Origin: an uncultured Leptolinea sp.
GTDB taxonomy: Bacteria > Chloroflexota > Anaerolineae > Anaerolineales > Anaerolineaceae
Direction: 5' to 3'
Length of the DNA stretch: 64,000 nt
Assembly: GCA_964476915.1 (NCBI GenBank)
Contig: CAYZCO010000001.1
Span: 4,253-68,252 of the forward strand
Positions 400-36,226 of the stretch are shown here, piece by piece; position 1 is the stretch's first letter, and every line of letters begins with the position of its first letter. Made by a program: the position numbers and the translations under genes. Under the pieces are notes generated by a model. It saw only the letters and a list, made by a program, of their open reading frames with translations, did not search any database and was not told the DNA's origin.

Positions 400-1797
400 T
401 TACATGTGGATGCAGTGCCCTTCAACGTCGTGGGCAGCTTCCAACACCACTTCACTCAGGGTGGGGTGGGAGTGGACATTGCGGGAAATCTCAGCAGCGG
501 TCAGCTCCATGCGCTGTGCCAGGGTGAGCTCCGGCAGCAGTTCTGATGCTTCGGGCCCGATCAGGTGGGCTCCCAAAATTTCTCCATACTTAGCATCTGA
601 GATAATTTTTGCAAAACCGACACCTTCGCCCACGCCAAGTGCTTTACCGTTTGCCATGAAATTGAACCGTCCCACTTTGACTTCGTACCCGGCTTCCTTT
701 GCCTGTGCTTCGGTATAGCCAAAAGAGGCAACCTGCGGGCTGCAGAAGGTGGTGCGCGGCATCATGCGGTAGTCAAGGGTAACCGTTTCAGCGCCGGCAA
801 TGTTCTCTGCGCAGACAATGCCCATATTTTCCGCCACATGCGCCAGGAGGAGCTTGCCGGTCACATCGCCGATTGCCCAAATGCCGGGCACACTGGTTGC
901 CATGCGGTCGTCAATGTCAATATGGCCTCGTTCGGTCAGTTTGACTCCAGCTGCTTCCAGTCCAAGGTCGGCGGTGTTGGGTTTGAACCCGATCGCCACC
1001 AGCGCCTGTTCGGATTCGATCACTTTTTCGCCGTCCGGTGCGCTTACCTTTACCACCACACCTTTTTCATTGGCTTCGACGGATTGCACCCGGGTTCCGG
1101 TCATAATGGTAATACCGCGGCGTTTGTATTGCTTTGCAAGCTCGTTGCTGACCTCTTCATCTTCCAGGGGCAGGATGCGCGGCAACATTTCGACCAGGGT
1201 TACCTTGGTGCCGTAGGATGACCATATAGTGGAAAATTCAACACCGATCGCGCCTGCGCCGATGATCACGGCTGATTCAGGCAGGTTAGTCTGCAAAATG
1301 GCTTCGTGGTATGAGATAACACGCTTGCCGTCAAGGGTGATCCCGGGAACGGAGATGGCATGCGAACCGGTGGCAATCACGATATTCTCTGCAGTGAATT
1401 CGCTGGTCTTGCCCTCGGCATCAGTAACCTGGACACGGTCTTTCGCCAGCAATTTGGCAGCGCCCATATGCACATCGATCTTGTTCTTCTTCATCAGGAA
1501 ACCTACACCCTTGGTGAGCCGTTCAGATACCTGGCGGCTGCGGGTAACCGCCTTGGAATAGTCCAGGGTGAGGTTATCGAACGAAATACCGAATTCAGCT
1601 GCCCTTTCGCGCAGGGTGTGCGCCAGTTCGGCATTCTTCAACAGGGATTTGGAGGGAATGCAGCCCACATTCAGGCAGACCCCGCCCAGCCATTGTTTAT
1701 CAATAATGGCAGTTTTCAATCCCAGCTGAGAAGCGCGGATGGCGCTGACATATCCGCCGGGACCAGCCCCAATAACGATCACATCGTAATCACTCAT
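400..1797 (-). CDS. lpdA: Dihydrolipoyl (lipoamide) dehydrogenase, E3 component
   Basis: 465 aa. N-terminal FAD-binding GxGxxG (VIVIGAGPGGY), redox-active disulfide motif GGVCLNVGCIPSK, second NAD-binding fold (VIIGAGAIGVEF), C-terminal dimerisation region with HAHPTLSE. Confidence 0.92.
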   Translation of the reverse strand: MSDYDVIVIGAGPGGYVSAIRASQLGLKTAIIDKQWLGGVCLNVGCIPSKSLLKNAELAHTLRERAAEFGISFDNLTLDYSKAVTRSRQVSERLTKGVGFLMKKNKIDVHMGAAKLLAKDRVQVTDAEGKTSEFTAENIVIATGSHAISVPGITLDGKRVISYHEAILQTNLPESAVIIGAGAIGVEFSTIWSSYGTKVTLVEMLPRILPLEDEEVSNELAKQYKRRGITIMTGTRVQSVEANEKGVVVKVSAPDGEKVIESEQALVAIGFKPNTADLGLEAAGVKLTERGHIDIDDRMATSVPGIWAIGDVTGKLLLAHVAENMGIVCAENIAGAETVTLDYRMMPRTTFCSPQVASFGYTEAQAKEAGYEVKVGRFNFMANGKALGVGEGVGFAKIISDAKYGEILGAHLIGPEASELLPELTLAQRMELTAAEISRNVHSHPTLSEVVLEAAHDVEGHCIHM

Positions 1798-1929
1798 GGT
1801 AACCTCGATATTGTTAATATTTCGATCTTCTATAAGAAAAACTTTCCCGTATTATACCCATTTCAAGTGCTGTCTGCCACTTTTACCATCTTGTGCTATA
1901 TTAGGTTTATCACTCAAGAAGAGGATCCG

Positions 1930-3927
1930 ATGAAAACTATAACCGCACAAGATCTATACCGTTTTCAGCTTGCCAGTGGAGTGCGCATCTCCCCTGACGG
2001 AAGCAAAGTGGTCTACGTCCAGCACCGCGTGGACCAGAAGACCGAGAAGAAATACTCCAATTTGTGGCTGGCAGATACCGAAGGTGGAACACCGGTTCAG
2101 TTCACCTATGGCGACCATGTCGATACCGCACCTGAATGGTCACCGGATGGTAAGAGCATTGCCTTCCTGTCAAACCGGAAGAACGATGCCCGCCCGCCGC
2201 AGCTTTTCGTCATTTCGTTGATGGGCGGTGAAGCCCGCCCGCTGCAGGAAGTTGCCGGCAGTGTCGGATCGCTGGCCTGGTCTCCGGACGGGAAGCACCT
2301 GGCTTGCACCGTACAAAAAATGGACCCCGAAGCCCTGGAACGCGAAAAAGATGAAAGCAAGAAGAAACTGGGTGTGGTTTACCGCCAGTATGACCGGCTT
2401 TTCTACAAGCTGGACGGTGTGGGTTACCTGCCGCATGAACGCTGGCACCTGTGGAGATTTGACGTAAAGACCGGTAAAGGCACCCAGTTGACCGACCACA
2501 AAGTCTTTGACGAAGAGTACCACTTCTGGTCTCCGGATGGGAAAACGATCGGGTTTGTTTCCAACCGCACTCCGGAACCGGATGCTGATTTCTACGCGTT
2601 GGGACTGTACACCATTCCAGCCAGCGGCGGTGAAATAACGGAAATCCCCACGCCCAAGGGCAGCAAAGCGCACCCTTCGTTCTCACCAGACGGCAAATGG
2701 ATCGCATATTATGGCGTGGAGTGCGAGAAGGAAGAATACCTGAACGACAGCCTTTTTGTTGTGCCGGCAGACGGCAGCGCTGCCCCGCGCAACCTGACAG
2801 ACGCTTACGACCTGCATATTTCCAATTGGACGATCAACGACCTGGGAACCCCCGAAATGATGGCGCCGCTTTGGTCTCTGGACAGTAAAAGGATAACTTT
2901 CCCTGTAACCTACCACGGCAGCAGCATCCTGAAGAGCGTGGCAGTGGATGGCAGGGACTTGCAGACAGTGGTGGATGAGGGCGGCGTTGCCAGCGGCTGG
3001 ACAGTGGACAAGGCGCAGCAGAAGATGGCTTACATGTGGGGGCATATGTACGATCCCTCACAGGTGGCGGTCCAGGACCTGAAGACTGGCAAGCGCAAGG
3101 TACTGACAACACTCAATAAAGACATTTTTGCGAAAGCGGCTCTGAGTAAGGTTGAAGAGGTCTGGTATAAAGGCGGCGCAGGCAATGACCTGCAGGGGTG
3201 GATCATGACCCCGCCCGATTTTGATCCCGCCAAGAAGTACCCTTCGATCCTCTACATTCACGGCGGACCGCTGGTGCAGTATGGCAAGTTCTTTATGCAT
3301 GAATTCAACTACCTGGCTGCCCAGGGATATGTGGTGCATTTCACCAACCCGCGCGGCGGCAGGGGCTACGGGTTTGACCATGCCAAGGTCAACCATGGCA
3401 AGTGGGGCACGGCTGATTATGATGACTTGATGGCCTGGACAGATTACGTGGAGAAACTGCCTTACATCGATAAAGACCGTATGGGAGTTGCTGGCGGTAG
3501 CTACGGAGGATACATGACCCTGTGGATTGTCGGGCATACCCACCGCTTCAAGGCAGGTGTTTCCCAGCGCTGTGTGAGCAACTTCATCAGCGAATGGGGC
3601 TCGAGTGATGTCAATTACTCCTTCGAACAGGAACTGCAGGCAGGTGCCCCATTCCAGGACCTGGAGAAGTACTGGAATATGTCGCCCATGAAGTACATCG
3701 GCAATGCCCGCACGCCTACCCTTATCATCCACAATGAAAATGACATGCGCTGCCCGATCGAGCAAGGTGAACAGGCATACGTGGCGTTGAAGCGGATCGG
3801 GGTGGAGACTGAAATGGTGCGTTTCCCGGATGAGTTCCACGGGCTATCCCGCAACGGCCGCACCGACCGGAGAATTGCCCGGTTAAATCACATCCTGCGG
3901 TGGTTTAATAAGTACTTAAAGAAGTAA
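1930..3927 (+). CDS. S9 family serine peptidase (acylaminoacyl-peptidase / prolyl oligopeptidase-like): N-terminal beta-propeller, C-terminal alpha/beta hydrolase
   Basis: Internal ATG at 1930 (MKTITAQDLYRF...), in frame with the listed ORF 1360..3927 whose upstream part overlaps lpdA on the other strand. Repeated SPDG propeller motifs; catalytic Ser in GGSYGGYMT; Asp/His region (ENDMRCP, FPDEFHG). Confidence 0.8.
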   Translation: MKTITAQDLYRFQLASGVRISPDGSKVVYVQHRVDQKTEKKYSNLWLADTEGGTPVQFTYGDHVDTAPEWSPDGKSIAFLSNRKNDARPPQLFVISLMGGEARPLQEVAGSVGSLAWSPDGKHLACTVQKMDPEALEREKDESKKKLGVVYRQYDRLFYKLDGVGYLPHERWHLWRFDVKTGKGTQLTDHKVFDEEYHFWSPDGKTIGFVSNRTPEPDADFYALGLYTIPASGGEITEIPTPKGSKAHPSFSPDGKWIAYYGVECEKEEYLNDSLFVVPADGSAAPRNLTDAYDLHISNWTINDLGTPEMMAPLWSLDSKRITFPVTYHGSSILKSVAVDGRDLQTVVDEGGVASGWTVDKAQQKMAYMWGHMYDPSQVAVQDLKTGKRKVLTTLNKDIFAKAALSKVEEVWYKGGAGNDLQGWIMTPPDFDPAKKYPSILYIHGGPLVQYGKFFMHEFNYLAAQGYVVHFTNPRGGRGYGFDHAKVNHGKWGTADYDDLMAWTDYVEKLPYIDKDRMGVAGGSYGGYMTLWIVGHTHRFKAGVSQRCVSNFISEWGSSDVNYSFEQELQAGAPFQDLEKYWNMSPMKYIGNARTPTLIIHNENDMRCPIEQGEQAYVALKRIGVETEMVRFPDEFHGLSRNGRTDRRIARLNHILRWFNKYLKK

Positions 3928-3982: not shown

Positions 3983-4152
3983 AAGTTCAGGGCGAGATCC
4001 TTCGGTCGCAAGCTCTCTCAGGATGACAGTGGGGTGGGTTTGTCACTCTGAGCAAAGCGAAGAGTCTCGCATTGAATGAGGAGAATAGGGAAGAATAGCA
4101 AAGAGCGCAAAGATGATCCTCGCGCTCTCAATATTCTCGAGCTTCCTGTCTC

Positions 4153-5154
4153 TTACTTCGTGGGAGGCAGACCAATGGCATCACGCACCAGAGCCATTGT
4201 CTCTTCTGCCAAAACACGAGCGTGCTTTGCACCGTCATGCAGCACATCCATGACAGCTTCCGGTTTCTGGTCCAGCTCGGTCCGGCGGGCGCGGAACGGT
4301 TCCAGGTGCTTGTTGATATTCTGTGCCAGCAGTTTCTTGCAATCCACGCAGCCGATCCCAGCCACACGGCACTCACGGTTGACCATTTCCACCTCTTCCG
4401 GGTTGGAAAAGATTTTATGGAAGGAAAACACATTGCAGACATCCGGGTTTCCGGGATCACTGCGGCGCTGGCGGGCAGGGTCAGTGACCATGGTCATCAC
4501 CCGTTTGGTGGTTTCTTCGGGGGTAGCAGCCAACTCTATGTGATTGTTCAGGCTCTTGCTCATCTTTTGCTGCCCGTCGGTGCCCAGTACCTTGGGTACT
4601 TTGGTTGCTTTCATGTGCGGTTCCACCAGCACATTGGTGTTGTAGCGGAAATTAAATGAGCGAACCAGTTCACGTGCAAATTCCAGGTGAGGAGCCTGGT
4701 CAATTCCCACCGGTACGTAGTTGGCCCGGTAAAGCAGGATGTCGGCTGCCATCAGGATTGGATAACCCAGCAGACCGTAGTTAACGTTGTCAGGATGCTG
4801 GCGTACTTTTTCTTTGAATGTAGGCAGGTCGGTCAATTTCCCCAGGGGAGTGACCATCGAAAGATAGGTGTGCAGCTCGGTTACTTCGGGGACATGGCTC
4901 TGGATAAAGATAACCGATTCCTGCGGATCCATCCCGGCTGCCAGCCAGTCCAATGCCATCTCGTATGCATTCTGGCGCAGTTCCAGCGTGGTCTCCATTG
5001 TTGTGAGGGCATGGATATCCACGATGCAGTAAATGCAATGGTAATCTTTCTGCAGGGCAACGTAATTTTGGATTGCTCCCAGGTAATTTCCCAGGTGCTG
5101 CCTGCCGGTCGGCCTGGCGCCTGAGAAAACGGTCCCTTTCTTTTTGCTCATCAT
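4153..5154 (-). CDS. trpS: Tryptophanyl-tRNA synthetase
   Basis: 333 aa class I aaRS. HIGH-type motif (TGRQHLGNY) and KMSKS (KMSKSLNN). The ATGATG start overlaps the stop of the upstream selenoprotein gene (A-TGA-TGA), indicating translational coupling. Confidence 0.9.
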   Translation of the reverse strand: MMSKKKGTVFSGARPTGRQHLGNYLGAIQNYVALQKDYHCIYCIVDIHALTTMETTLELRQNAYEMALDWLAAGMDPQESVIFIQSHVPEVTELHTYLSMVTPLGKLTDLPTFKEKVRQHPDNVNYGLLGYPILMAADILLYRANYVPVGIDQAPHLEFARELVRSFNFRYNTNVLVEPHMKATKVPKVLGTDGQQKMSKSLNNHIELAATPEETTKRVMTMVTDPARQRRSDPGNPDVCNVFSFHKIFSNPEEVEMVNRECRVAGIGCVDCKKLLAQNINKHLEPFRARRTELDQKPEAVMDVLHDGAKHARVLAEETMALVRDAIGLPPTK

Positions 5155-5402
5155 TTGCCTTCTTTCAGGTATTTCTCCACCAGTGCCCTTACCTCGCCGG
5201 GTTCTGCATGCAAACCGGTTTTTAGCTTGGAGTAGAGAAGAGTACCATTAACGGTAACCTCATACCGTCCACCGCTGGAAGGAATGAGGGTAATCTGTTC
5301 GATCTCGGGTTCGTGAAATTCCAATAATTCTGCTGCCAAACTGACAGCCCGGGGGGTGTAGTGTCAAACCGCACAGTATTCGATGGTGATTTTCAGCAAC
5401 AT
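5151..5402 (-). CDS. SelW/Rdx-family selenoprotein (CxxU) with in-frame UGA selenocysteine codon
   Basis: Manual translation from ATG at 5402: MLLKITIEYCAV-[TGA at 5366-5364]-HYTPRAVSLAAELLEFHEPEIEQITLIPSSGGRYEVTVNGTLLYSKLKTGLHAEPGEVRALVEKYLKEGK*. The frame stays open on both sides of the TGA. GGGAG RBS 5 nt upstream. Sequence matches the Rdx/SelW fold pattern (beta1-CxxU-helix, then the GGxFEV-like GGRYEVTV motif). The ORF track only shows the post-UGA half (5151..5339, TTG-initiated). Confidence 0.7.
5332..5348 (-). promoter_or_regulatory. Putative bacterial SECIS hairpin downstream of the UGA
   Basis: On the mRNA: UGA + 15 nt, then GCUGUC-AGUUU-GGCAGC (6-bp stem including one G-U pair, 5-nt loop). 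The position is roughly compatible with bacterial SECIS elements. Only the short stem was found by eye. Confidence 0.3.
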
Positions 5403-5435
5403 GGTGTCTCCCAATTGGTGATGGTTTCTGGCTGA

Positions 5436-5441
5436 ATTATA
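5436..5441 (-). promoter_or_regulatory. Candidate extended -10 (TGATATAAT) for the selW-like/trpS operon
   Basis: Minus-strand reading cTTGATATAATtc lies about 35 nt upstream of the selW-like ATG, in the divergent region shared with the sugar transferase gene. Confidence 0.25.
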
Positions 5442-5510
5442 TCAAGAGTCCATTCATGTTTATGATATGATACAAACCTGATGACGAAAGGTGCAGTGAC
5501 AGTGTAATTT

Positions 5511-6140
5511 ATGGCAAAACTACTACCGGCAGGCATCCCGGTGAGCAAGCGCATCTTCGACCTGGTCCTGACTACCCTTGGCCTGGCAATCCTATCCCCG
5601 TTCCTGCTGATTCTCATCCTGCTGGTCTGGATAAATCATGGTAAACCGGTTTTCTTCCGCCAGGTGCGCCCGGGATACATGGCACAGCCCTTCAGGATCT
5701 TTAAATTCCGAACCATGCGCGACCTGTACGACAGTGATGGGAACCTGCTTCCGGATGCAGAGCGATTAACCCGTTTTGGCCGGTTCATGCGCTCATTCAG
5801 CCTGGATGAAATCCCCGAATTATTCAATGTATTACTGGGCGATATGAGCCTGGTCGGACCCCGCCCGCTGCTTATGAGCTACCTGCCGCGCTATTCGGCC
5901 GAACAGATGCGCCGGCATAATGTAATCCCCGGGATGACCGGCTGGGCGCAGGTGAACGGGCGCAATGCCCTATCCTGGCCGAAGCGCCTGCGGATGGATG
6001 TCTGGTATGTGGACAACTGGTCGTTCTGGCTGGATATTAAGATCCTTGTGATGACCATGATAAAGGTCCTCAAAAGGGAGGGGATCAGCGAGCCGGGGCA
6101 GGCCACTGTATCCGAATTTATGGGGACAAAAGAGGAATAG
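5511..6140 (+). CDS. Polyprenyl-phosphate sugar phosphotransferase (bacterial sugar transferase, WbaP/PglC-like C-terminal domain family)
   Basis: 209 aa. N-terminal TM helix, then conserved RPGYMAQPFRIFKFRTM...DEIPELFNVLLGDMSLVGPRP motif block typical of exopolysaccharide priming sugar transferases. Confidence 0.8.
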   Translation: MAKLLPAGIPVSKRIFDLVLTTLGLAILSPFLLILILLVWINHGKPVFFRQVRPGYMAQPFRIFKFRTMRDLYDSDGNLLPDAERLTRFGRFMRSFSLDEIPELFNVLLGDMSLVGPRPLLMSYLPRYSAEQMRRHNVIPGMTGWAQVNGRNALSWPKRLRMDVWYVDNWSFWLDIKILVMTMIKVLKREGISEPGQATVSEFMGTKEE

Positions 6141-6146
6141 AAAACC

Positions 6147-7172
6147 TCAGGGGGTAAGCGGGGCGATCAAGCCGGCTTCCAGGCTTTTGCGTATTTTTTC
6201 CACATTTTGCAGCTTGCCAGGGGTCAGATGCTGGTCGTTGATATCCCGAATCTGCAAAGGGGCGGTGACAACCGATGATTCTGCGTTACCCAGGATATAC
6301 TCCTGCAATGACAGGAGCGCTGCCGGCAGGTCAAACCCGATCGTGGCGGCGTACATTGATTGGACGGTATCCGGAGGGGAATCACTGCCGAGCAGGATGA
6401 CCCCTTTGCCAGCAAGGTCAGCCTGCAAGACAGGGTCAGAAGCATATTCGTCCAGGTACATCACATACACCACGTTGAGCAGCAATTCATTTGCCAGTCC
6501 CTGCCAGGCAGTAGTATCGGCGCCGGCAGAAAGGTAACCAACCAGCGGGAATTGCACCAGGGGGGAATAATAAGGATAACAGGTTCCGCAAAAATAACCC
6601 CCGCCGTTTTGGAAGGCATACACCTGGGGCGGGCCGTACGGTTCATCCGCAAGGAACAGCCCGGCTGACCGGAAGTCTGGTGCGATGACAGTGCTGGCAT
6701 AACCAGCCAGGAATGCCCTGGCTGCAAGCGGAAGATAGACCACAGCCAGGTTGGCGCTGGAGGTTTGCTGAGAACGGGTGACCGCAACCAGGCGGGCTTC
6801 GGGGTTGCCTGCTGCCAGTTCAACCGGGTTGGATGTTTCAACCAGGTATATGACCACTTCAGCGTTTTCCGGTACGGTACCGGCTGCTTCGGCGCCCAGC
6901 TCAACCACATTCAGGTCTGCCTTTGCGGCGGTATCTTGTATAGCAGTGCGGATGGCTTGTTGCTGCCCGGCATCCCATGTTTCTAACCCAATAACGGCGA
7001 GATTAGCCTGCTGCGGCAAGGCTGGAGTATCCTCTGCCGGAGGGGCTGCAGTTTCAATCACAGGAGGTTCAGTTGGGGACGGGCTTGCGGAAGGTTGGGC
7101 ACAACTGCTAAGCAGCAGAACCAGCAGGAGAATGATTGCCAGGATGGATTGATATTTATGGGGCGGCAGCAT
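6147..7172 (-). CDS. Secreted lipoprotein, possibly BMP/PnrA-like substrate-binding fold
   Basis: Signal peptide with lipobox (LLLSSCAQP). Pro/Ala/Thr-rich linker. Periplasmic-binding-protein-like body with an AFLAGYAS motif reminiscent of the BMP family. Family assignment is tentative. Confidence 0.4.
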   Translation of the reverse strand: MLPPHKYQSILAIILLLVLLLSSCAQPSASPSPTEPPVIETAAPPAEDTPALPQQANLAVIGLETWDAGQQQAIRTAIQDTAAKADLNVVELGAEAAGTVPENAEVVIYLVETSNPVELAAGNPEARLVAVTRSQQTSSANLAVVYLPLAARAFLAGYASTVIAPDFRSAGLFLADEPYGPPQVYAFQNGGGYFCGTCYPYYSPLVQFPLVGYLSAGADTTAWQGLANELLLNVVYVMYLDEYASDPVLQADLAGKGVILLGSDSPPDTVQSMYAATIGFDLPAALLSLQEYILGNAESSVVTAPLQIRDINDQHLTPGKLQNVEKIRKSLEAGLIAPLTP

Positions 7173-7249
7173 GGCTCAATTTTACCTTACTTGTTAAGAA
7201 TCCTCTAACCGCAAAGGGAAATCAGACAAATCTTGTTATAATTGGCGCC

Positions 7250-8566
7250 ATGCCAAAATACCATATTTGGACTGAAGGCTGCCAGATGAATGTTGCTGAT
7301 TCACAGCGGGTGGCATCTGCGCTTGAGCACCTGGGTTACCATGAAACCCGCCAGGCGGCTGAAGCGGATGTGATCGTCCTGAACACCTGCGTTGTGCGCC
7401 AGAGCGCTGAAGATAAAGCCTATGGCAGGCTGCAGTCCTTAAGACCTTTGAAAGAAAGCAACCCATCCCTGGTGATCAACCTGATGGGCTGCATGGTGGG
7501 TACCCGTACGCCGGATATCCTGAAAAAGCGCCTGCCGATGGTTGATGTGTTTTCGCCGCCATCAGATCCGGAGCCATTGATCGCCCATTTAACCCAGCAG
7601 GAAAGCCAGCAGATGGAGTTGAGTGAGACTGCCCGCCGGTTTGCCTGGATGGATGGTGAACTGGAATTACCCGAGAAGGCACGCGGAAGGCAGGTGACTG
7701 CCTTCATCCCGGTGGTATACGGCTGCAGCCATGCCTGTGCCTATTGCATCATCCCTTACCGCAGGGGCAGGGAGCATTCCCGTCCGCCAGAAGATGTGCT
7801 GGCCGAAGCCCGCTCGCTGGCAGCCCAGGGTGTCAAAGAAATCACCCTGCTCGGGCAGATCGTTGACCGCTATGGCAAGGACGAGCCGGGGTATCCCCGC
7901 CTGCCTGGCTTGCTTGAAATGCTTCATGAAGTGGACGGCATAGAGCGCATCCGGTTCCTGACTTCCCACCCCAACTGGCTGAGCGATGAGCTGATCGATT
8001 GTGTGCAGCGGCTGCCCAAGGTTATGCCGCACATTGAAGTGCCAGCCCAGGCTGGTGATGATACCATCCTGGCTGCCATGCGGCGCGGCTACACTGATGC
8101 AGAGTACCGCAGCCTGGTTGAACGTATCCGCGGGCGGATTCAGGGCGTTTCGATCGCCACAGATATTATTGTCGGCTTCCCCGGGGAAACCGAAGCCCAA
8201 TTTGAGAATACCTACCGCCAGCTGCAGGACTTGAAGCTGGATGTTGCACACCTGGCCAGGTATTCACCCCGTTCGGGCACGCTTTCCGAGCGGACCATGC
8301 CGGATGATGTCCCGGAAAAAGAGAAATGGCGCCGTTTCCGTTTGCTGGAAGATCTGCAGGAGGGGATTGCTGCGGAAATTCATGCAAAATACCTGGGACA
8401 GAATGTAGAAGTCCTGTTTGAAGACAAGGTCAAGCAGCGCTGGCGTGGAAGGACCCCGACCAACAAGCTTGTCTTTGTGGAAACCGAGCAAAATCTGTTG
8501 GGGAAGATCTTGCCGGTTAAGATCAACTGGACAGGCCCCTGGTCGATGATTGGGGAGCTTGCTTGA
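7250..8566 (+). CDS. miaB: tRNA-i6A37 methylthiotransferase (radical SAM MTTase)
   Basis: Start chosen at MPKYHIWTEGCQMN (internal ATG of ORF 7136..8566). UPF0004 N-domain Cys residues; radical SAM CxxxCxxC (GCSHACAYC); TRAM-like C-terminus. Confidence 0.85.
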   Translation: MPKYHIWTEGCQMNVADSQRVASALEHLGYHETRQAAEADVIVLNTCVVRQSAEDKAYGRLQSLRPLKESNPSLVINLMGCMVGTRTPDILKKRLPMVDVFSPPSDPEPLIAHLTQQESQQMELSETARRFAWMDGELELPEKARGRQVTAFIPVVYGCSHACAYCIIPYRRGREHSRPPEDVLAEARSLAAQGVKEITLLGQIVDRYGKDEPGYPRLPGLLEMLHEVDGIERIRFLTSHPNWLSDELIDCVQRLPKVMPHIEVPAQAGDDTILAAMRRGYTDAEYRSLVERIRGRIQGVSIATDIIVGFPGETEAQFENTYRQLQDLKLDVAHLARYSPRSGTLSERTMPDDVPEKEKWRRFRLLEDLQEGIAAEIHAKYLGQNVEVLFEDKVKQRWRGRTPTNKLVFVETEQNLLGKILPVKINWTGPWSMIGELA

Positions 8567-22380: not shown

Positions 22381-23589
22381 TTACAGTCCTGCTGCTTTGC
22401 GCAGGGTTTCTGCCTTATTGGTCCTCTCCCAGGTCAGGTCGAGGTCATCGCGGCCGAAATGGCCGTAGGCTGCCACCTTCTGGTAGATCGGGCGGCGCAG
22501 GTCCAGGTCGCGGATGATGGCACCGGGACGCAGGTCAAAGTGCTTAGTAACCAGGTCTGCGATGGCGTCATCTTCGATCTTGCCTGTGCCAAAGGTCTCA
22601 ACATTGACGCTCAAAGGACGGGCAACCCCGATGGCATACGAAACCTGGATTTCACAGCGGTCAGCCAGGCCGGCTGCAACCACATTCTTCGCCACCCAGC
22701 GGGCAGCATAGGCTGCTGAGCGGTCCACCTTGGTCGGGTCTTTGCCGCTGAAGGCGCCGCCGCCATGCCGGCCCATACCGCCGTAGGTATCCACGATGAT
22801 CTTGCGTCCGGTCAGGCCGGCATCGCCCATCGGGCCGCCAATCACAAACCGTCCGGTCGGGTTGACAAAGATCTTCATGTTTTCATCTACAAGGTCGGCA
22901 GGCAGGGTGGGCATGATCACGTTCTCGGTCAGCGCTTCTTCGATCTCATTATGGGAGACATCGGGATCGTGCTGAGTGCTGATCAGTACGGTATCAATAC
23001 GCACGGGTTTACCGTAATGGTATTCAACTGTGACCTGGGTCTTGCCGTCCGGGCGCAGCCAGGGCAGGGTGCCATTCTTGCGCACTTCGGTCAATTTGAG
23101 TGCCAGTTTATGCGCCATATAAATGGGCATGGGCATTAAGGCTGGGGTTTCATTACAGGCAAAACCGAACATCATACCCTGGTCGCCAGCGCCGATGGCT
23201 TCGATCTCGCTTTCGTCCATCTTGCCTTCTTTGGCTTCGAGGGCTTTATTCACGCCCATAGCAATGTCGCCGGACTGGCTGGCAATAGCGGACTGCACCG
23301 CGCAGGTCTCAGCGTCGAAACCCTTGCTGCTGCTGTCATAGCCGATTTCTCGTACAACCTTACGGACCAGGTCATCAAAGTTGACAAACGCCTTGGTGGT
23401 GATCTCCCCCATCACCATTACAAAGCCGGTTTTAGTTGCGGTCTCACAAGCGACGCGTGAATTCGGGTCGACCGCCAGGCAGGCATCCAGTACCGCGTCA
23501 CTGACCTGATCACAAAGTTTATCGGGGTGACCTTCTGTGACAGATTCTGAGGTGAAAAGGTACTTGGATGCTTTCATAAAAGTAGTTGT
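22381..23589 (-). CDS. metK: S-adenosylmethionine synthetase
   Basis: Start set at [25 protein letters not shown] (GGAGG RBS 7 nt upstream). The listed ORF extends to 23637 into the riboswitch terminator. Hallmark GHPDK motif plus [19 protein letters not shown]. Confidence 0.92.
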
Positions 23590-23604
23590 CATAAAGACCT
23601 CCAT

Positions 23605-23639
23605 CAAAAAGATTGCCCCATCTTTGAAGAGGGGCAATC
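23605..23639 (-). terminator. Intrinsic terminator forming the expression platform of the metK SAM riboswitch
   Basis: mRNA: GAUUGCCCC-UCUUCAAAGA-UGGGGCAAUC-UUUUUG, immediately upstream of the metK RBS. Its 5' arm follows the 3' half of aptamer helix P1. Confidence 0.8.
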
Positions 23640-23654
23640 AGTGAAGTTTGCTTA

Positions 23655-23772
23655 CCCTCCTATCTTCCAGATCTTTTTCTGCCGGAATTGGCACCTTGAA
23701 CCAACTTCAGGTTGTATCAGGTTGCCGAGGTTTCAACGGGCCGGTCCCTCCACCTCTCTGGATAGAAGCGCC
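23655..23772 (-). promoter_or_regulatory. SAM-I (S-box) riboswitch aptamer in the metK leader
   Basis: Minus-strand RNA: CUUCUAUCCAGAGAGGUGGAGGGACCGGCCCGUUGAAACCUCGGCAACC...GGUGCCAAUUCCGGCAG...AGAUCUGGAAGAUAGGAG. This matches the conserved SAM-I core (AGAGAGGyGGAGGGAcnGGCCCgaUGAAaCC, GGCAACC, GGUGCcAAUUCCngCAG, closing P1 ...GAUAGGAG pairing with CUUCUAUC). Confidence 0.85.
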
Positions 23773-24460: not shown

Positions 24461-24784
24461 TCAACTGTAATTTCTATTTCTAAACATAGGTTTATCAATT
24501 CCCCTTTTTAATGCAGCCTTTGCTTTTTTGGGTTCTCTAATTATCCAGTCCATAGTTAAAAGAGCTGCAATAGGATCCATACCGTACTCATCAATAAGCT
24601 GCTTTACATGAACATCTTCAAAAGTGATATCTGGTAACGCTGAAACTTCTAAGAAACGAAAAAAAGCATCTTGAATTTCATGTTTTGCACAATGGATTTT
24701 ATCAGCAATAAGCTTGGCATCTTCCCTAGAATATTGGAATTTAGTTGCAAGAACTGTGATTATTTCTTCATTTTCCATTATCAA
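24461..24784 (-). CDS. Hypothetical 107-aa protein, last gene of the island, translationally coupled (ATGA overlap) to the HExxH protein gene
   Basis: MIMENEEIITVLATKFQYSREDAKLIADKIHCAKHEIQDAFFRFLEVSALPDITFEDVHVKQLIDEYGMD... Helical, no recognisable motif. 4-nt start/stop overlap with the upstream gene. Confidence 0.4.
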   Translation of the reverse strand: MIMENEEIITVLATKFQYSREDAKLIADKIHCAKHEIQDAFFRFLEVSALPDITFEDVHVKQLIDEYGMDPIAALLTMDWIIREPKKAKAALKRGIDKPMFRNRNYS

Positions 24785-25371
24785 TTCTCCATGTCCCCGT
24801 ACAATCCAATTTGGATTGCATTCGCATAAGACCAGGCATCAGCTTCTACTGGTTGATTCAAATACATCTCTAAACCGTAAGTTTCTGCATTCTTGTAGTC
24901 TTGCATGTTATCTTTCCATTCCTGGACGATATTTTGGTCAGAAATTATCTCTGGACGCTCAATTGCATAATCTTGATATGCGTGTCGCCCCTCATGGACA
25001 ATAGTATCTACGTTCTCCATTACCGTTTGATCTCCCATGAGGTGATCGTAGTTAACTCGGATAGATTGTCCATTCCATCCGCCAAACACATTATCTTCCA
25101 TTGAGACAGCTTCAACGGGAACCGAAGGTCTACCTTGAATACTTGCCATATTATCTTCCACGTTTTGCAAAGCAGCTAGTCGTTCATTTGCATCCTGAAT
25201 AGTCTCCCAATGTTCCGGTTGAATTTCACTTATTTGTCGCAACGAATCTACTCCATCAGCAATCTGACCCCTAGTCTCTAAGGAATAGCTATCTGTTAGA
25301 TCAGTCATTTGCGGAATATCCGATGGAGTCTCTAAGTTTTCATTTGTGTCTAATGATGTGTTTGAGTCCAT
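24781..25371 (-). CDS. HExxH zincin-like putative metallopeptidase (196 aa)
   Basis: IVHEGRHAYQDY contains HExxH followed by xxQ; a downstream ...LEMYLNQPVEADAWSY could supply a third ligand (Glu). Acidic N-terminal half. Family assignment uncertain (minimal zincin / DUF4157-like). Confidence 0.45.
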   Translation of the reverse strand: MDSNTSLDTNENLETPSDIPQMTDLTDSYSLETRGQIADGVDSLRQISEIQPEHWETIQDANERLAALQNVEDNMASIQGRPSVPVEAVSMEDNVFGGWNGQSIRVNYDHLMGDQTVMENVDTIVHEGRHAYQDYAIERPEIISDQNIVQEWKDNMQDYKNAETYGLEMYLNQPVEADAWSYANAIQIGLYGDMEN

Positions 25372-25384
25372 GTTGGTTGATCAA

Positions 25385-25855
25385 TCAGCCTAATATTTCA
25401 GGATTTGAATTTTCTTCCGTTTCATTTTCGAGGTTATTATAAATTATCCGTTCTGGCGATTCGGGACCTGCTTCAACCAAAACTGCATTACCAAGTTCAG
25501 TTGTGGCATACCGTTCCGATTGTATTGGGGGGGGATTTGAAATAGTATCCGAATCAAGAGGTGATTGGATTAAAGTATCTGAAGGTTGATTTTGGGTAAT
25601 TGATTCTTCGGAATCTCTGGTTGGAGATCCTGGTGGAGGTTGTGTATCACTGCCTGTTTCGGTTGTAAGATTAGAATTCATTTCCATTTCTTCTATACGT
25701 GTGTTTAACCTACTTTCTTGAGCTGCCAATTCTTCGTCTGCACGTCTACCCGCTTCAATAATATCTGGAGATAAGAGGCTATTATCAATAGGTATTAGAC
25801 CTTCATCATTCAATTCACTTCTGTTGTCTACTGGATTGCTATCAATATCATCCAT
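25385..25855 (-). CDS. Acidic Ser/Thr/Pro/Glu/Asp-rich intrinsically disordered protein (156 aa); start abuts the ATPase stop
   Basis: MDDIDSNPVDNRSELNDEGLIPIDN...TGSDTQPPPGSPTRDSEESITQNQPSD... has no hydrophobic core. ATG at 25855 lies adjacent to the stop of the ATPase gene. Confidence 0.4.
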   Translation of the reverse strand: MDDIDSNPVDNRSELNDEGLIPIDNSLLSPDIIEAGRRADEELAAQESRLNTRIEEMEMNSNLTTETGSDTQPPPGSPTRDSEESITQNQPSDTLIQSPLDSDTISNPPPIQSERYATTELGNAVLVEAGPESPERIIYNNLENETEENSNPEILG

Positions 25856-28834
25856 TTATTCCTCCAAAAGTTTGCTCTTGCCATACAGTTCCACAAGTTT
25901 TCGTGCTCGTGATTTTAAAGCATTGTCATTTGACTCTATTGCTAATATTTTATTCATTTCATGTGCAATAAAACAATAAGCCCAACCGATAACATTCTCT
26001 GATGATAATAATTCCTTGTACCTATTTTGAATTAATACTAATACTTCTTTTAAGTGAATTAAAGCGTCTTCTTGATCAACAGAGTTAATTGCTGCTGATA
26101 CTTTTTCGGAGCATTGTTTATAGAATAATGGTTTTTGGAGTATTTGATTGGTGACTGGAACTTTATATTCGCACACATTTCTAGCCTTACACTTACAATA
26201 AATGCACGTTTGCATAGGAGAATACAACGCCCATTTCTCAATCGTCTGATTTGTGTTTGAGGAATCTTTCTTTTGATCTCTATCAATAAAATGTGACCAG
26301 CCTTCTGGTTCAGTAATGTATAAATTAAATTTATGATTCTGCCTTGTCATAAAATGGTTAATTGATATATCATTGGTTACTTGTGCTTTTTTCCTGTCAA
26401 AGGAAGCTTGATCTCCAAATTCAGGAACCTTTAAATGAACGGGTTGTCCAAAAATACTCCTGACAATTGCGAAACCTGGTTTCAAAGTTCGAGCATACTC
26501 TTTTTGGGTCCTATTTAGGTTCGTTATGGTCGAAAATAATTCAAAGCTTGGTGCATCTTCTATCCAGTGCATGATTTTAATAAATGTATTTCCTATAGCA
26601 CCTTTTACTAATATTGTCGGAATCTGTTCGGCTATAACTATTCCTTCTCCATACGCACGTACTTCTGCAAGCATATTGCCGAAGTCCTCGCCGGAACTAT
26701 GCCGAGAATTTCCTTGCATATTGGAGTTTGCGGGGCTTTCTGACATCAAACGATGCGCTTCTTCTATAACTGTAATATGAGGGCTATCTAATGGTCTTGG
26801 ATTAATCTCAACAGTCTCGGTGAAGCAAACTAAAAGGAAACCCATAATTAAAGCGATATCATCTGTCGAACCAATTCTGCCCAATTCCATAATTGTTGGA
26901 TGATCGAGAATTTTTTCAAAAGGCATAGATTTCCGCACATTTACTGTGTACCCGACATTTTCCAAAAGATCTCCAATTCGGATTACTGAGGCTTGTTTTA
27001 CATTATCCCGAACTTCTCCACTATAGTTCAACCGATTAGTAATCTCTTGGATCGCTTCATAAAATTCCGACATTATTGGATAATGATGGGCGTCACTTCC
27101 TCTATCAACAGCAACATTCCACCCGGCATCTCGATAAACTTTTCGTAATGCTTCTCGATAGATCATTGGCAGCGGATCTTGTAAGGAAAAAGCAGATTCG
27201 AAAATTCGCATTAATCGCGAAATGTGGGTTTTTATCAAAATACCATCAGGGACAGCAAAAGGGTTGAACCTGAAAGGAGAAGTAGATTCATCGCCAACTG
27301 TATAGATTAAAAGGTCCTCTTCTAAATCAATAAATCCTTTTAACTCTCTGTAATCTGGTTTGTCAACAGGATATAAAACCATAAATGGGATTTTGTGTTT
27401 TAGCCATAATTGTGAAAGTAAATGTTTTATTGTTGTGCTCTTACCAGAACCAGTCGAACCCGCTATTAAAGCATGACGTGTCAAGTCGCGTACTGGTATT
27501 GTGAATTCCCCATTGGTGGAGCTTCCTCGATGAAAAATCTGGCCAAGACTTATTTTCTTTTCTTTTTGTGCTTCTTTCGATATGACTAATCCATCATTGA
27601 AATTCACTTTTGCTTGTTCGCGTAGCTCTAACTCATCAATTGGGGATATGAAAGGTTCGTTCTTTACCAGGATGCCAGGTAAATATCCAGATTCAGGTGG
27701 AATTGGTAATCTGAACGCCCCATATGCCTCTTGTGCAGTTGCTAAGTATCGCAACCGGATTAAGGGATCGGAGGCAATAGTAAAACCCCAAAAATCATGT
27801 TCAAGAAATCGTATGTTATTTAATTCTGTTCGTAATTGTTGGTCATCAGCTGGTTGAGCAGATACCCATGAGGTTGGGTATTTGTTGGCTGCATTACCCA
27901 TCATTTCAGAACCAAGCGCTTCTACCAAACCGCGTGGACAATCTAATTCACCAACTATATGGACACGTACCATCAGTAATTGTTCACGCTCCACCATTAA
28001 ATTGTCATAAACGAAAACTCCTACCTGTGATCGTTTTCTAATGTATTCTTCTGTAACATCTTCATCTTCTGATGCAGTCTTCTTAAATTGACCGATCATA
28101 AAGCTAACATTGTAGATTTCCTGGTCAAACATTTTGGTGGGTTTGAGACTGATATCAACGAAGCATTTTTGTGGTTGCGCAGATAACACTGCGAAAAATC
28201 GGCTCATCGGATTGGAGTTTTGACTTGGTACAAAAGGATGAGCAATATAATCACCTTTTCTTTCAACTCTAGCAGTTGGTGCAGAGCTTCGAATTGGCAT
28301 ATCTTCGTATTTACGAATTTCTAACACGCTCTCCTTTGATAAATTGTTAAATGGAATTGGCTCATAATATTGCCAGAATTCACGTTCTTGATTAACTGAT
28401 TCCAATGGATAGCCGAAAGGTTCTTCTGTGGGAAAAATGCCAGAAAATTTTTCCCACAGAACCTCTGCAAATTGCTGTGCACTAATTGCATTTTTTGAAA
28501 ATGATTTTCCAAAGAATATGATCTCAACTAAATTTGGTTGGCCAGCGATAGGGTTTGGAGTAGAAATGAACCTGAGAGAAAAAGTTGAATGGTTCTCCCG
28601 AATTCGGGCAAGGTCGTAAATAAACCTGAACTGGCGTTGTTGAATTATTGAAATTCGGTTATTGCCTGGTCTTGTCAAATCATCTGAAATCATTGAGGGT
28701 AAAAATGGTACCCGTGCTGCCCATATTGCATGAACTCCTTCTACTGAACGAAAAGAGAGTCCAATTTGGTTATCAAAACTGAAGGCTTGATTTATTGAAG
28801 TCTTTTCAGATACGTATATATAGGGATAACTCAT
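25856..28834 (-). CDS. HerA/FtsK-superfamily (DUF87/VirB4-like) P-loop ATPase with ~440-aa uncharacterised N-terminal region and C-terminal Cys-rich segment (992 aa)
   Basis: Walker A LIAGSTGSGKST. Walker B HITVIEEAHRLM (hhhhEEAH, the DEAH-like variant typical of HerA/VirB4/TraC-type ATPases). C-terminal CIYCKCKARNVCEYK Cys cluster. N-terminal 440 aa has no recognisable motif. Confidence 0.7.
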   Translation of the reverse strand: MSYPYIYVSEKTSINQAFSFDNQIGLSFRSVEGVHAIWAARVPFLPSMISDDLTRPGNNRISIIQQRQFRFIYDLARIRENHSTFSLRFISTPNPIAGQPNLVEIIFFGKSFSKNAISAQQFAEVLWEKFSGIFPTEEPFGYPLESVNQEREFWQYYEPIPFNNLSKESVLEIRKYEDMPIRSSAPTARVERKGDYIAHPFVPSQNSNPMSRFFAVLSAQPQKCFVDISLKPTKMFDQEIYNVSFMIGQFKKTASEDEDVTEEYIRKRSQVGVFVYDNLMVEREQLLMVRVHIVGELDCPRGLVEALGSEMMGNAANKYPTSWVSAQPADDQQLRTELNNIRFLEHDFWGFTIASDPLIRLRYLATAQEAYGAFRLPIPPESGYLPGILVKNEPFISPIDELELREQAKVNFNDGLVISKEAQKEKKISLGQIFHRGSSTNGEFTIPVRDLTRHALIAGSTGSGKSTTIKHLLSQLWLKHKIPFMVLYPVDKPDYRELKGFIDLEEDLLIYTVGDESTSPFRFNPFAVPDGILIKTHISRLMRIFESAFSLQDPLPMIYREALRKVYRDAGWNVAVDRGSDAHHYPIMSEFYEAIQEITNRLNYSGEVRDNVKQASVIRIGDLLENVGYTVNVRKSMPFEKILDHPTIMELGRIGSTDDIALIMGFLLVCFTETVEINPRPLDSPHITVIEEAHRLMSESPANSNMQGNSRHSSGEDFGNMLAEVRAYGEGIVIAEQIPTILVKGAIGNTFIKIMHWIEDAPSFELFSTITNLNRTQKEYARTLKPGFAIVRSIFGQPVHLKVPEFGDQASFDRKKAQVTNDISINHFMTRQNHKFNLYITEPEGWSHFIDRDQKKDSSNTNQTIEKWALYSPMQTCIYCKCKARNVCEYKVPVTNQILQKPLFYKQCSEKVSAAINSVDQEDALIHLKEVLVLIQNRYKELLSSENVIGWAYCFIAHEMNKILAIESNDNALKSRARKLVELYGKSKLLEE

Positions 28835-28915
28835 TATCTGGCCTTCCTGTGTTTAATAACCAGCAATCATACACGATTACTGAATGAATCAAAAAGTAGA
28901 AAGTCTATATAAATT

Positions 28916-29878
28916 TTAATCACCCCAGGGTTGATTATAATCATCTTGTATCATAGAACTCTCATCACCATATTTTACATTTTGAATTCTACTAATTTCT
29001 TCCTTGGTTGATGCAATTTGGGGGATTAATTGACCATTTATGTACTCACTTACTGACTTTTTCCGATTGGATATCACTTTTATACTAGATAGTAACGAAA
29101 AAACACCAATTAATATAATCAATACAATAAAGAATGCAGCCCAGCTTTCAGTGGAAAAACCAACAATAGCTGATAACATTAAAGCCCCTATTCTAAACAA
29201 ACCACCTATGCAACTTGATCCAGCGGTTTTGTTTAATTCAGGGTGGGCACGAATAATGCTTGTGTAATCCGTTTGACCATCTTGAAGTTCTGTTTGCAAG
29301 GCCAGGAGTCTTTTTTGTTGATCAGTTAATAGTTCACTTTGAAGTTTCTTGAAATTATCTTCTTTATTTACGCCACAATTTGAGCAGAACTTGTTTGAAA
29401 ATTCGACAAGAGAATTACAATTAGGGCATTTGACCCCAATTCTTTTCCCGCATTTAGCGCAGAATTGTGTGCCAGTTGGATTTGCTTTCTTGCACTTTGG
29501 GTCCGTACAGATCCAGGCGTCCGTTCTTTCAACCTCTTTTTGTTCGGAAGCAGGAAAATGAATGTTACTAGGTCGGGGCGGTGCCATTACTCTATTAACA
29601 GGATTTTGCGCAATGAGAACATCAGGATCTGCAAGACCAGCCATGGTGCCTTGAGCTTGAGCAAGAAATCTATCATACTCATTCCGTTTTTCCGAATTCA
29701 TCAACGTATTTCGGATCTCTTCAAGTTGGTTTAAAGCCTGGTTTGCCTGAGACACAATATTTACATCGTGATGTGTAACTAATGACCGCCATTTTGCGTA
29801 TTGATCGTCTAGTCTTTCTTCAATCTCAGCACTACTTGCATTTGAAGCTAATTTAAGTAATTCATAATAATTAATCAT
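28916..29878 (-). CDS. J-like domain protein (HHD variant of HPD) with zinc ribbons and C-terminal TM anchor (320 aa)
   Basis: N-terminus INYYELLKLASNASSAEIEERLDDQYAKWRSLVTHHD...SEKRNEYDRFL aligns with the DnaJ J-domain (YYEILGV..A...EI..AY..LA.K.HPD...AYEVL.D..KR..YD). Followed by CTDPKCK...CAKCGKR...CPNCNS...CSNCG zinc ribbons and a hydrophobic C-terminal segment (IGALMLSAIVGF...FFIVLIILIGVFSLLS). Confidence 0.55.
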   Translation of the reverse strand: MINYYELLKLASNASSAEIEERLDDQYAKWRSLVTHHDVNIVSQANQALNQLEEIRNTLMNSEKRNEYDRFLAQAQGTMAGLADPDVLIAQNPVNRVMAPPRPSNIHFPASEQKEVERTDAWICTDPKCKKANPTGTQFCAKCGKRIGVKCPNCNSLVEFSNKFCSNCGVNKEDNFKKLQSELLTDQQKRLLALQTELQDGQTDYTSIIRAHPELNKTAGSSCIGGLFRIGALMLSAIVGFSTESWAAFFIVLIILIGVFSLLSSIKVISNRKKSVSEYINGQLIPQIASTKEEISRIQNVKYGDESSMIQDDYNQPWGD

Positions 29879-29907
29879 TATTCTCCTCGGTTTAATACTG
29901 TTTTGGT

Positions 29908-30726
29908 CTATTCATCGTTCTCTGGATACCTGGCAAACCATTGATTCTTCACTTTCCTTGCTTCTAACGAGTTGTTTCGGTTTAATGCGTCTTCATGCCA
30001 TCGTTTATAAATGTCCTCCTGCAATGATCTTGCCTTCATAATGTTGGAGCAATTAACAATCACTTCATCTAACAGGTTTATAGATTTCTTCCATGCCGAA
30101 ATGTAAGCATACCTTTCTGCTAAAAGATAGTTTGCATCACATTTGATGTTCTTACACTCAACATTGTGTTGATCTAACGAAAGGCAAATACTTGATTGTT
30201 CAAGTGCAATATCAAGTTGGTCATGCTCAAAGGCATCCTTAGCGTAAAGTATGCTCAATTTTAAGTTTACAGGATTCAAGGTATTCTTATTTACCATAAA
30301 ACGTTTGGCCATTTTTAAATTGCTTTTTGCGCAGGCATAATCACCAGATTGGATGCAATTCTGCGCTACGTGCAATGATTCAACACCTTTTGTTTGCATT
30401 TTCCTTATAAAAACACCAATGATCACTATTCCAATGATTAAAATTATGCCAATAATTATGCTTATAATGATTGTTTGGCGTAATCTTAAAATAAACCAAG
30501 GTTTATCTTCAAGTTTCGGGAACGTTGCTGTGTTATCAGTCAAATTTTCTTGAAAAGCGATAAAATCATCTCTTAGTTTTTCTTTTGTTTCGTTCAGAAA
30601 TTCATCGCTTTTTTTGTAAGCGCGCATGTTTATTCCACATCCAGAGCAGATTTCTATGCCGATTGAATTGAAAAATCCACAACTTGGACAACAAATATGC
30701 AGAGGAGATGGATTATTTACCTTCAT
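29908..30726 (-). CDS. Zinc-ribbon / single-pass membrane / Cys-containing helical-repeat (TPR-like) protein (272 aa)
   Basis: N-terminal CPSCG...CSGCG zinc ribbon; TM helix IIISIIIGIILIIGIVIIGVF; C-terminal helical domain with several Cys. Its start overlaps the stop of the upstream gene at 30726. Confidence 0.45.
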   Translation of the reverse strand: MKVNNPSPLHICCPSCGFFNSIGIEICSGCGINMRAYKKSDEFLNETKEKLRDDFIAFQENLTDNTATFPKLEDKPWFILRLRQTIIISIIIGIILIIGIVIIGVFIRKMQTKGVESLHVAQNCIQSGDYACAKSNLKMAKRFMVNKNTLNPVNLKLSILYAKDAFEHDQLDIALEQSSICLSLDQHNVECKNIKCDANYLLAERYAYISAWKKSINLLDEVIVNCSNIMKARSLQEDIYKRWHEDALNRNNSLEARKVKNQWFARYPENDE

Positions 30727-31382: not shown

Positions 31383-31387
31383 AGTAA

Positions 31388-32614: not shown

Positions 32615-32823
32615 GATTGTGATAACCTCTCATAAAAATGTATACACTTCAATAAACCCAACCTTGTGTAACCTTGATTGGGCTCTCTTTGAGGACCAAT
32701 GGTTGTGTAGATATTTGTAAGAATATTGTTTTTGAATTCATAGGAAGCGAAATTTTATTAGAAATAGCTTGGTAAAAGTATATATTACTTTTACTATTTG
32801 TGTTAAATGATCCCAATCTTCCG

Positions 32824-34374: not shown

Positions 34375-34536
34375 AGTGAAACCCTTATAATTTTTGCATA
34401 TAGAATTATTAAGAATCAACGATTTTCTGAGAAATTTATCTCATGAAGATGGTCCTTTTAACAATCACTTGTTCTTTTTGAATTAGAGTATTATCCCTAA
34501 AAAGAGATACTGGAAATACCATACCTTAAGTATGGG

Positions 34537-35964: not shown

Positions 35965-36226
35965 GATACCTCCTGTTTGGTTGTGAACTATCACTAAAGA
36001 TCTCTTTCAAAAAAATGTATTTACTTAAGAATTCATAAAATCGTTCTAAATAGGAAAATATTATCTAATAAATTTTAACCTAATTTATTCTTTAAGGAAA
36101 ATTAAAGTCCTGGCTCACGATTAAATAGATTATCCAACTTCGGAGTTTATAAGCGTGTCTTGCTAACTGCCCATTAAGAGACTATAATCAGCTTCTGCAG
36201 TAATTGGAAAGAAGGAAAGCAGTACT

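Follow-up and report, generated by a model that had tools for sequence, protein, structure and literature searches.

Our analyses concern a 64,000-nucleotide stretch of DNA from an uncultured Leptolinea sp. (contig CAYZCO010000001.1 of assembly GCA_964476915.1), referred to here as the window, and in particular a small minus-strand gene at 5402..5151, here called selW, which directly precedes trpS. We consider it very probable that selW is intact and encodes a selenoprotein of 83 residues that belongs to the SelW-like (Rdx) family, that the in-frame UGA at its codon 13 is read as selenocysteine (Sec), and that the gene heads a unit with trpS. The gene and its elements are as follows.

5151..5402, minus strand: SelW-like/Rdx gene, predicted to encode a selenoprotein (translation, Pfam Rdx, TIGR02174, 80 orthologous loci)
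5366..5364, minus strand: in-frame TGA, codon 13, predicted selenocysteine at the second redox position of CxxU; the next base is C
5373..5375, minus strand: TGT codon of Cys10, the first CxxU residue, which pairs with the first Cys of CxxC in 2fa8, 3dex and 2p0g
5408..5412, minus strand: Shine-Dalgarno-like GGGAG, 5 nt before the ATG at 5402..5400, read from the sequence, with a presumed function in initiation
5436..5444, minus strand: possible extended -10 element, TGATATAAT, in a 108-nt divergent intergenic region, proposed from the sequence only

Reading frame, family and conservation of the UGA codon

Read on the minus strand, 5402..5151 comprises 83 sense codons, of which one is an in-frame TGA, and ends in the stop TGA at 5153..5151. 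The translation is MLLKITIEYCAV up to the in-frame TGA and HYTPRAVSLAAELLEFHEPEIEQITLIPSSGGRYEVTVNGTLLYSKLKTGLHAEPGEVRALVEKYLKEGK from there to the stop (beginning HYTPRAVSLAAELLEF and ending KEGK), which gives a predicted active site of C10-A-V-U13. An earlier reading made from the letters alone (the sequence-only reading) had proposed an 83-aa protein starting at this ATG behind a GGGAG ribosome-binding site, with the frame open on both sides of a TGA that falls at the U of a CxxU motif. Translation bore out the start, the length and all of the coordinates it gave, coding constraint was found on both flanks of the TGA (see below), and the family profile and the alignment of CxxC homologues agreed in placing codon 13 at the U. 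The sequence-only reading had also held that a standard gene caller would truncate the gene, and the program-made list of open reading frames (ORFs) does show only a TTG-started, 62-aa ORF at this locus (5151..5339). When all window ORFs broken by one TGA were sought, selW was returned and, apart from it, spurious cases only.

Profile searches, run with U written as C, placed the read-through protein in the Rdx family. It matched Pfam Rdx (PF10262) at 1.5e-19, with 70.4 bits against a cut-off of 22.6 and an alignment over profile positions 1-73 of 74, and it matched TIGR02174 (CXXU_selWTH) with 53.5 bits against a cut-off of 34.2, so that the comparison with family models suggested in the sequence-only reading came out in its favor. 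The best-scoring NCBIfam model was NF041051 (Campylobacter SelT/SelW/SelH); the score of 75.8 bits is under the cut-off of 88, which rules out equivalog status for the window protein. Sequence comparison found six bacterial homologues of the Cys type with solved structures: 2fa8 (1e-11), 3dex, 2p0g, 2obk, 2oka and 2ojl. In the alignments of 2fa8, 3dex and 2p0g, YCTQC or YCRQC lies on YCAVU, with Cys at the TGA position, which is the placement that the earlier reading had expected of Cys-containing homologues.

A structure model was made for the orthologue P0001, which is 73% identical, with W standing for U. This AlphaFold model has a predicted local distance difference test (pLDDT) score of 92.3 and the order b1, CxxU loop, a1, b2, b3, b4 and helices, the CxxU loop lying between strand E2-9 and helix H15-32. 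Its best matches in the PDB were bacterial SelW-related structures, with template modeling (TM) scores of 0.84-0.87 and a root mean square deviation of 1.4 A. The top 21 structures in the ranking were SelW-related (TM 0.78-0.87), MIEN1 was 22nd and mouse SelW 23rd (TM 0.76), and thioredoxins came thereafter. The thioredoxin-like Rdx fold is thus found in the model of the orthologue and is predicted for the window protein, for which thiol/selenol oxidoreduction is the most likely biochemical role.

Conservation was assessed in a species-level scan (one genome per species) that recovered 495 relatives. Counts given from here on refer to the best 80 of the 495 loci, nearly all of which are labelled Anaerolineae or other Chloroflexota, with one metagenome-assembled genome (MAG) of Limnocylindria and two other labels. 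The closest relative, Leptolinea sp. UBA4782, has 96% protein identity and approximately 91% DNA identity over 5.7 kb. A TGA occupies the same codon in 80 of the 80 orthologous loci, and upstream of it all 80 contain a conserved Y-C-x-x and a start approximately nine codons further up. Entropies at the three codon positions were 0.75/0.52/1.45 over the 9 codons upstream of the TGA and 0.72/0.45/1.50 over the 60 codons downstream. The similarity of the two patterns indicates that both flanks are under the same coding constraint and that the leader evolves as in-frame coding sequence. The sequence-only reading had named an unconserved N-terminus as a result that would undo it; these codons are kept, with coding-type evolution in all 80 loci, and a downstream start is thereby excluded.

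These data bear directly on the possibility that the TGA is a true stop, in which case the product would be a 62-residue protein from the TTG at 5339 and the upstream 12 codons would be an untranslated leader. The ORF list makes this call, dozens of proteins of 57-64 aa carry the label Rdx or 'selenoprotein W-related' in databases, and the truncated form still scores above the Pfam cut-off, at 41.2 bits. However, the truncated form covers only profile positions 19-73 and lacks positions 1-18, which correspond to strand 1 and the CxxC/U active site, while every one of the 80 loci conserves the codons that it leaves out, with a pattern at their third positions of the coding type. Its TTG also sits within the conserved hairpin described below, and the short database entries begin at differing residues, as would be expected if gene callers had taken arbitrary start codons. 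We regard termination at codon 13 as the normal fate of the frame as highly improbable. A decaying pseudogene with a nonsense mutation would likewise contain an in-frame stop codon, but the constrained flanks, the maintained hairpin and a TGA shared at this codon by 80 species-level genomes refute this reading, to which we assign practically no probability. Reassignment of UGA to Trp or Gly was considered separately and rejected: TGA terminates 12 of the 36 long ORFs in the window, selW included, so that it is an ordinary stop here and the genetic code is not reassigned.

Several 'full-length' homologues in the database (P0001, P0002, P0006, P0009, P0010 and others) have W at the Sec position. 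In P0001, the entry for which the DNA was read (a 528-bp contig, L164, 280-528), the codon is TGA, and the W in its protein sequence therefore comes from translation of TGA with another genetic code. Such W-containing public entries are a trap when Cys/Sec pairs are sought.

The hairpin downstream of the UGA and the case for selenocysteine

Two overlapping hairpin registers can be drawn downstream of the UGA.

5332..5348, minus strand: hairpin register A, GCUGUCA-GUU-UGGCAGC, which begins 15 nt past the UGA and has a loop that opens with G
5336..5352, minus strand: alternative hairpin register B, CCGGGC-UGUCA-GUUUGG, weaker, with three G-U pairs in the window

The arms of register A, G5348-A5342 and U5338-C5332, form seven pairs around a GUU loop or, alternatively, six pairs around an AGUUU loop. 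The sequence-only reading had drawn a hairpin 15 nt past the UGA in the six-pair form, and it is present at that place. Because registers A and B overlap, they cannot both form at once.

To evaluate the two registers we used a gapless alignment of 81 sequences, comprising the window (5319-5366, minus strand) and the 80 loci (L001-L080). For register A (columns 19-25 with 29-35), 83.0% of the cells were paired, compared with 20-57% when the partner columns were slid, and the compensatory pairs included CG 29 / UA 26 and GC 58 / AU 9. For register B (columns 15-20 with 26-31, 4 nt upstream), 86.5% were paired, compared with 22-47% for slid columns, with compensatory pairs of CG 38 / UA 13 and GC 31 / AU 10. 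One register or the other was fully paired in 70 of the 81 sequences. The relatives differ in the register used: B is dominant in some, some sequences can form either A or B, and in the AVSLAN... group register A is lost and the upstream register B alone is used.

The mean minimum free energy (MFE) was -10.95 kcal/mol, compared with -7.62 +/- 0.29 in protein-preserving synonymous-codon resamples, and the pairing fraction was 0.977 compared with 0.760 +/- 0.013; none of 200 resamples attained the observed values. The stability of the hairpin far exceeds what the amino-acid sequence demands. Some changes in the protein follow the RNA: where one arm has Ile for Val (AUC for GUC), the other has Met for Ala (AUG for GCA). 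The loops are GUC or GUU in fully paired register A and CGUGA-like in most cases of register B, with G at position 1 or 2. The consensus for the bacterial selenocysteine insertion sequence (SECIS) has G at loop position 1 or 2 (PMC1088965, PMC13582414). On the question of a SECIS, which the sequence-only reading had raised, the outcome is a SECIS-like hairpin that is conserved with covariation across the 81 sequences. The base after the UGA is C in 71 of the 81.

In the mechanism that we propose, UGA13 would be decoded as selenocysteine and the downstream hairpin GCUGUCA-GUU-UGGCAGC would serve as a bacterial SECIS. The hairpin loop would bring SelB-GTP-Sec-tRNA(Sec) to the ribosome for delivery of Sec at UGA13, and the weak UGA-C context would slow release, with Sec insertion competing with release factor 2 (RF2). 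The E. coli fdhF gene is the paradigm for SelB/SECIS decoding, which is applied to selW by analogy.

The evidence from the hairpin would also suit any other SelB-dependent event, and recoding of UGA to Cys by SelB and a non-canonical tRNA-Cys is reported (Vargas-Rodriguez et al. 2018, cited in PMC13582414). UGA13 could in principle be recoded as Cys through a tRNA-Cys(UCA) that depends on SelB, or near-cognate tRNA-Trp could read it as Trp; a CxxC or CxxW protein would result. We consider this very unlikely. Trp at a redox-active position is without precedent among the solved homologues, all of which have Cys; for Cys, TGC or TGT would suffice, yet TGA and a costly RNA structure are kept in 80 of 80 loci. 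In bacteria, moreover, SelW-like proteins are well established as a Sec family (PMC1088965, PMC1794560).

Decoding of UGA13 as Sec is consistent with what has been described for the phylum. The Sec-decoding trait has been reported in Chloroflexi (PMC1794560, PMC5322559), and SelB and Sec-containing formate dehydrogenases are encoded in single-cell genomes of Anaerolineales (PMC4959059). Anaerolinea thermophila UNI-1 encodes SelB with no dehydrogenase annotated as Sec-containing (PMC4959059), and two MAGs labelled A. thermophila (L006 and L031) carry the selW gene with its TGA. The selW-like gene may therefore be a client of the A. thermophila SelB.

Several results weigh on the other side. Taken alone, the window sequence is unexceptional in folding energy (71-nt fold, z = 0.05; 96 of 200 shuffles fold at least equally well), and it is the comparative evidence that argues for a hairpin beyond chance. 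The covariation controls in turn leave phylogenetic relatedness in, and the structure tested was derived from the same sequences. At gathering thresholds, Rfam returned only a SAM riboswitch and two tRNAs in the whole window, and at permissive thresholds the region 5140-5520 gave chance matches only; no usable SECIS model was available there. ARAGORN found no tRNA-Sec in the 64-kb window, which has two other tRNA genes, or in the 80 loci. No SelA, SelB or SelD was seen in the window or the 80 loci, in a weak test that used short peptide motifs. One relative, L165 (408-650), has TTA (Leu) in place of the TGA on a contig in which trpS is fragmented; this reflects either a mistake in sequencing or assembly or the decay of this copy. 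With regard to transcription, a promoter consensus scan called no sigma-70-type promoter at selW, and a -35 element is absent.

Linkage to trpS and dtd

The features of the downstream part of the unit are listed below.

4153..5154, minus strand: trpS, tryptophan-tRNA ligase, 333 aa (TIGR00233, 302.5 bits against a cut-off of 176.75)
5149..5154, minus strand: ATGATG, trpS start codon(s), overlapping the selW stop TGA at 5153..5151
5158..5163, minus strand: AGAAGG, Shine-Dalgarno-like for trpS, within the last selW codons and unpaired in the predicted fold
4339..4437, minus strand: C240-x21-C262-x6-C269-x2-C272 in the anticodon-binding domain of TrpS, a [4Fe-4S]-type motif
4101..4129, minus strand: terminator-like hairpin, 13-pair stem and T-rich tail, 24 nt past the trpS stop, a consensus match only

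If trpS starts at its first ATG (5154..5152), it shares 4 nt with selW (ATGA), and if it starts at the second (5151..5149), 1 nt (TGATG); orthologous TrpS proteins align to the second Met. The trpS gene lies downstream on the same strand in 72 of the 80 loci. The overlap of the selW stop with the ATGATG of trpS, pointed out in the sequence-only reading, recurs in 23 of these 72 junctions (ATGA in 18, TAATG in 5), while 16 have spacers of 0-20 nt and 33 have longer ones, with a median of 8 nt. Where the spacer is at most 20 nt, a Shine-Dalgarno-like motif lies within the 3' end of selW in 38 of 39 loci. The other neighbors in the window each occur in at most 12 of the 80 loci, and so the pair has been retained where the surrounding gene order has not. 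One of these neighbors, MiaB (7136-8566, plus strand), is an Fe-S enzyme for tRNAs reading U-starting codons and is encoded 1.7 kb upstream of selW on the opposite strand. It is found in only 2 of the 80 loci, and its adjacency to selW is probably a coincidence.

The dtd gene, for D-aminoacyl-tRNA deacylase (TIGR00256, 172 bits against a cut-off of 101.5), follows trpS in 60 of the 80 loci (for example at 7241-7672 in L002), which points to an ancestral cluster selW-trpS-dtd. In a further 5 loci dtd directly follows selW, without trpS. It is absent at this place in the window and in Leptolinea sp. UBA4782, and by this comparison of gene order the two lineages appear to have lost dtd from this place. 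Tryptophanyl-tRNA synthetase (TrpRS) is able to charge D-Trp by mistake, and Dtd removes D-aminoacyl-tRNAs; this would account for the pairing of trpS with dtd but not for selW. A literature search on Dtd, D-Trp and TrpRS found nothing.

Two controls were used to evaluate the linkage. In the fetched flanks (within 3 kb) of proteobacterial CxxC-type Rdx genes, trpS was found in 0 of 80 metagenomic loci, many of them on short contigs. In three Thermotogota loci no Rdx gene was found beside the Fe-S-type trpS, and scpA-scpB follow. As both controls were negative, the pairing of selW with trpS is specific to this Chloroflexota clade, which would fit a functional link peculiar to the lineage or else co-expression that has been strongly retained. 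The sequence-only reading had called the pairing unfamiliar, and our literature search likewise turned up no paper linking SelW-like/Rdx genes with trpS.

We propose that transcription would begin in the 108-nt divergent intergenic region, possibly from the extended -10 element at 5444..5436, that selW would be the first cistron and trpS the next, and that the unit would be closed by the terminator-like hairpin at 4129..4101. The window would represent the local form of the selW-trpS-dtd cluster of Anaerolineae and related Chloroflexota. In this arrangement trpS would be co-transcribed with selW and partly coupled to it in translation, and would not strictly depend on Sec. That coupling would be partial is suggested by the Shine-Dalgarno-like motif that trpS has of its own in an unstructured region.

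A stricter form of coupling can be envisaged, in which the selW frame is mainly a selenium-dependent translational gate and the start of trpS is reached only if UGA13 is decoded. The stop/start overlap would suit such a gate, and an overlap or a spacer of at most 20 nt is found in 39 of the 72 loci. In the remaining 33 of the 72, however, the spacer ranges from 21 to more than 150 nt, at which coupling is impossible. In the window itself the start region of trpS is unpaired (z = +0.99), with its own Shine-Dalgarno-like motif, and the selW protein is under purifying selection over its full length. TrpS passes an equivalog model for a housekeeping enzyme, and to make an essential enzyme depend on selenium would presumably be hazardous. 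Given the unstructured start and the long spacers in many relatives, we do not think that trpS is gated by Sec insertion, and we leave the gate only a very small chance.

The nearest solved relative of the window TrpS is the Thermotoga maritima TrpRS (2G36, 2.2e-80), and by alignment its four Cys residues match all of the cluster ligands of 2G36. The four-Cys motif is found in 69 of 69 complete selW-linked trpS genes. The published motif is C-x(21-24)-C-x6-C-x2-C; the cluster adjoins anticodon base C34, and its role in TrpRS is unexplained (PMC2954223). By its aligned residues, the window TrpS is predicted to belong to the same four-Cys [4Fe-4S]-motif subclass as the T. maritima enzyme.

It is conceivable, if unlikely, that the SelW-like selenoprotein of Anaerolineae is dedicated, as a redox partner, to the tRNA(Trp) charging module encoded alongside it, composed of the Fe-S TrpRS and, in most relatives, Dtd. 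For example, the selenoprotein might keep the cluster-ligand Cys residues reduced, or it might repair or sense the [4Fe-4S] cluster near base 34. Anticodon base 34 distinguishes tRNA-Trp (CCA) from tRNA-Sec (UCA). If selW does encode such a partner, the module would be the first defined client of a bacterial Rdx protein.

The window contains several other features. Ten co-directional ORFs on the minus strand (24461-35994) comprise an Hsp70 paralogue, a protein with a J-domain and a double zinc ribbon, an SPFH/Band 7 protein, two more double-zinc-ribbon proteins, a 992-residue HerA/FtsK-like P-loop ATPase and four ORFs without Pfam matches. The S-adenosylmethionine (SAM) riboswitch (RF00162, 86.6 bits) lies at 23657-23768 on the minus strand, directly upstream of an ORF with a MetK-like signature (region 22381-23768). 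A 465-residue ORF at 400-1797 (minus strand) is dihydrolipoamide dehydrogenase-like by eye only (GGVCLNVGCIPSK). In a naive longest-ORF pass it is masked by a spurious N-terminal extension of a plus-strand S9-type peptidase ORF, which is listed at 1360-3927 and shows homology from approximately residue 193 (approximately position 1936).

Comparison with known systems

SelW-like selenoproteins with a CxxU motif are well known, having been described since 2004-5, and the Sec call made here is another case of them, routine for specialists; it amounts to an addition to the family and a correction of annotation. Public annotation across Anaerolineae miscalls the gene as a 57-64-residue fragment, and the correction adds a selenoprotein. 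What is new, to a modest degree, is the conserved cluster with the Fe-S-type TrpRS and Dtd. Our literature search found no function described for bacterial Rdx proteins, and the function of SelW-like proteins was called unclear in the Sargasso Sea study (PMC1088965). The cluster, kept as other neighbors change, is a testable lead to that function.

The hairpin resembles the fdhF-type SECIS of E. coli in its position within the coding sequence 3' of the UGA, in the G (and U) of a small apical loop and in the UGA-C context, and its spacing from the UGA is within the range of bacterial SECIS elements. It differs in that the relatives use two registers 4 nt apart and in that Rfam gives no match; SelB binding is proposed by analogy. 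The window TrpS is similar to the T. maritima TrpRS in that its motif fits the published spacing and all of the ligand Cys residues are aligned, with the cluster itself predicted for the window protein. The Thermotogota loci differ from the window in having no Rdx gene upstream of trpS and in having scpA-scpB downstream.

Among Rdx proteins, the Cys-type members of Proteobacteria and Actinobacteria (2fa8 Atu0228, 3dex SAV_2001, 2p0g, 2obk, 2oka and 2ojl) share the fold, with TM scores of 0.8-0.87, and their CxxC aligns to the CxxU of the window protein. They differ in having Cys for Sec and in the neighborhood of their genes, the metagenomic loci of this type having no trpS nearby. The Campylobacter SelT/SelW/SelH proteins are represented by the best-scoring NCBIfam model, yet the window protein falls below its cut-off. 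The closest comparison is with the bacterial SelW-like selenoproteins, which were the most abundant selenoprotein family in the Sargasso Sea data and occur in several phyla (PMC1088965, PMC1794560). The window protein is of the same family by hidden Markov model and fold, and the two have in common the N-terminal CxxU, the UGA and a hairpin directly downstream. The subfamily of the window protein, an Anaerolineae one, differs from other SelW-like proteins in a conserved C-terminal half of its own, YSKL.TG.HAEPGE, and in the fixed place of its gene before trpS and, in most relatives, dtd.

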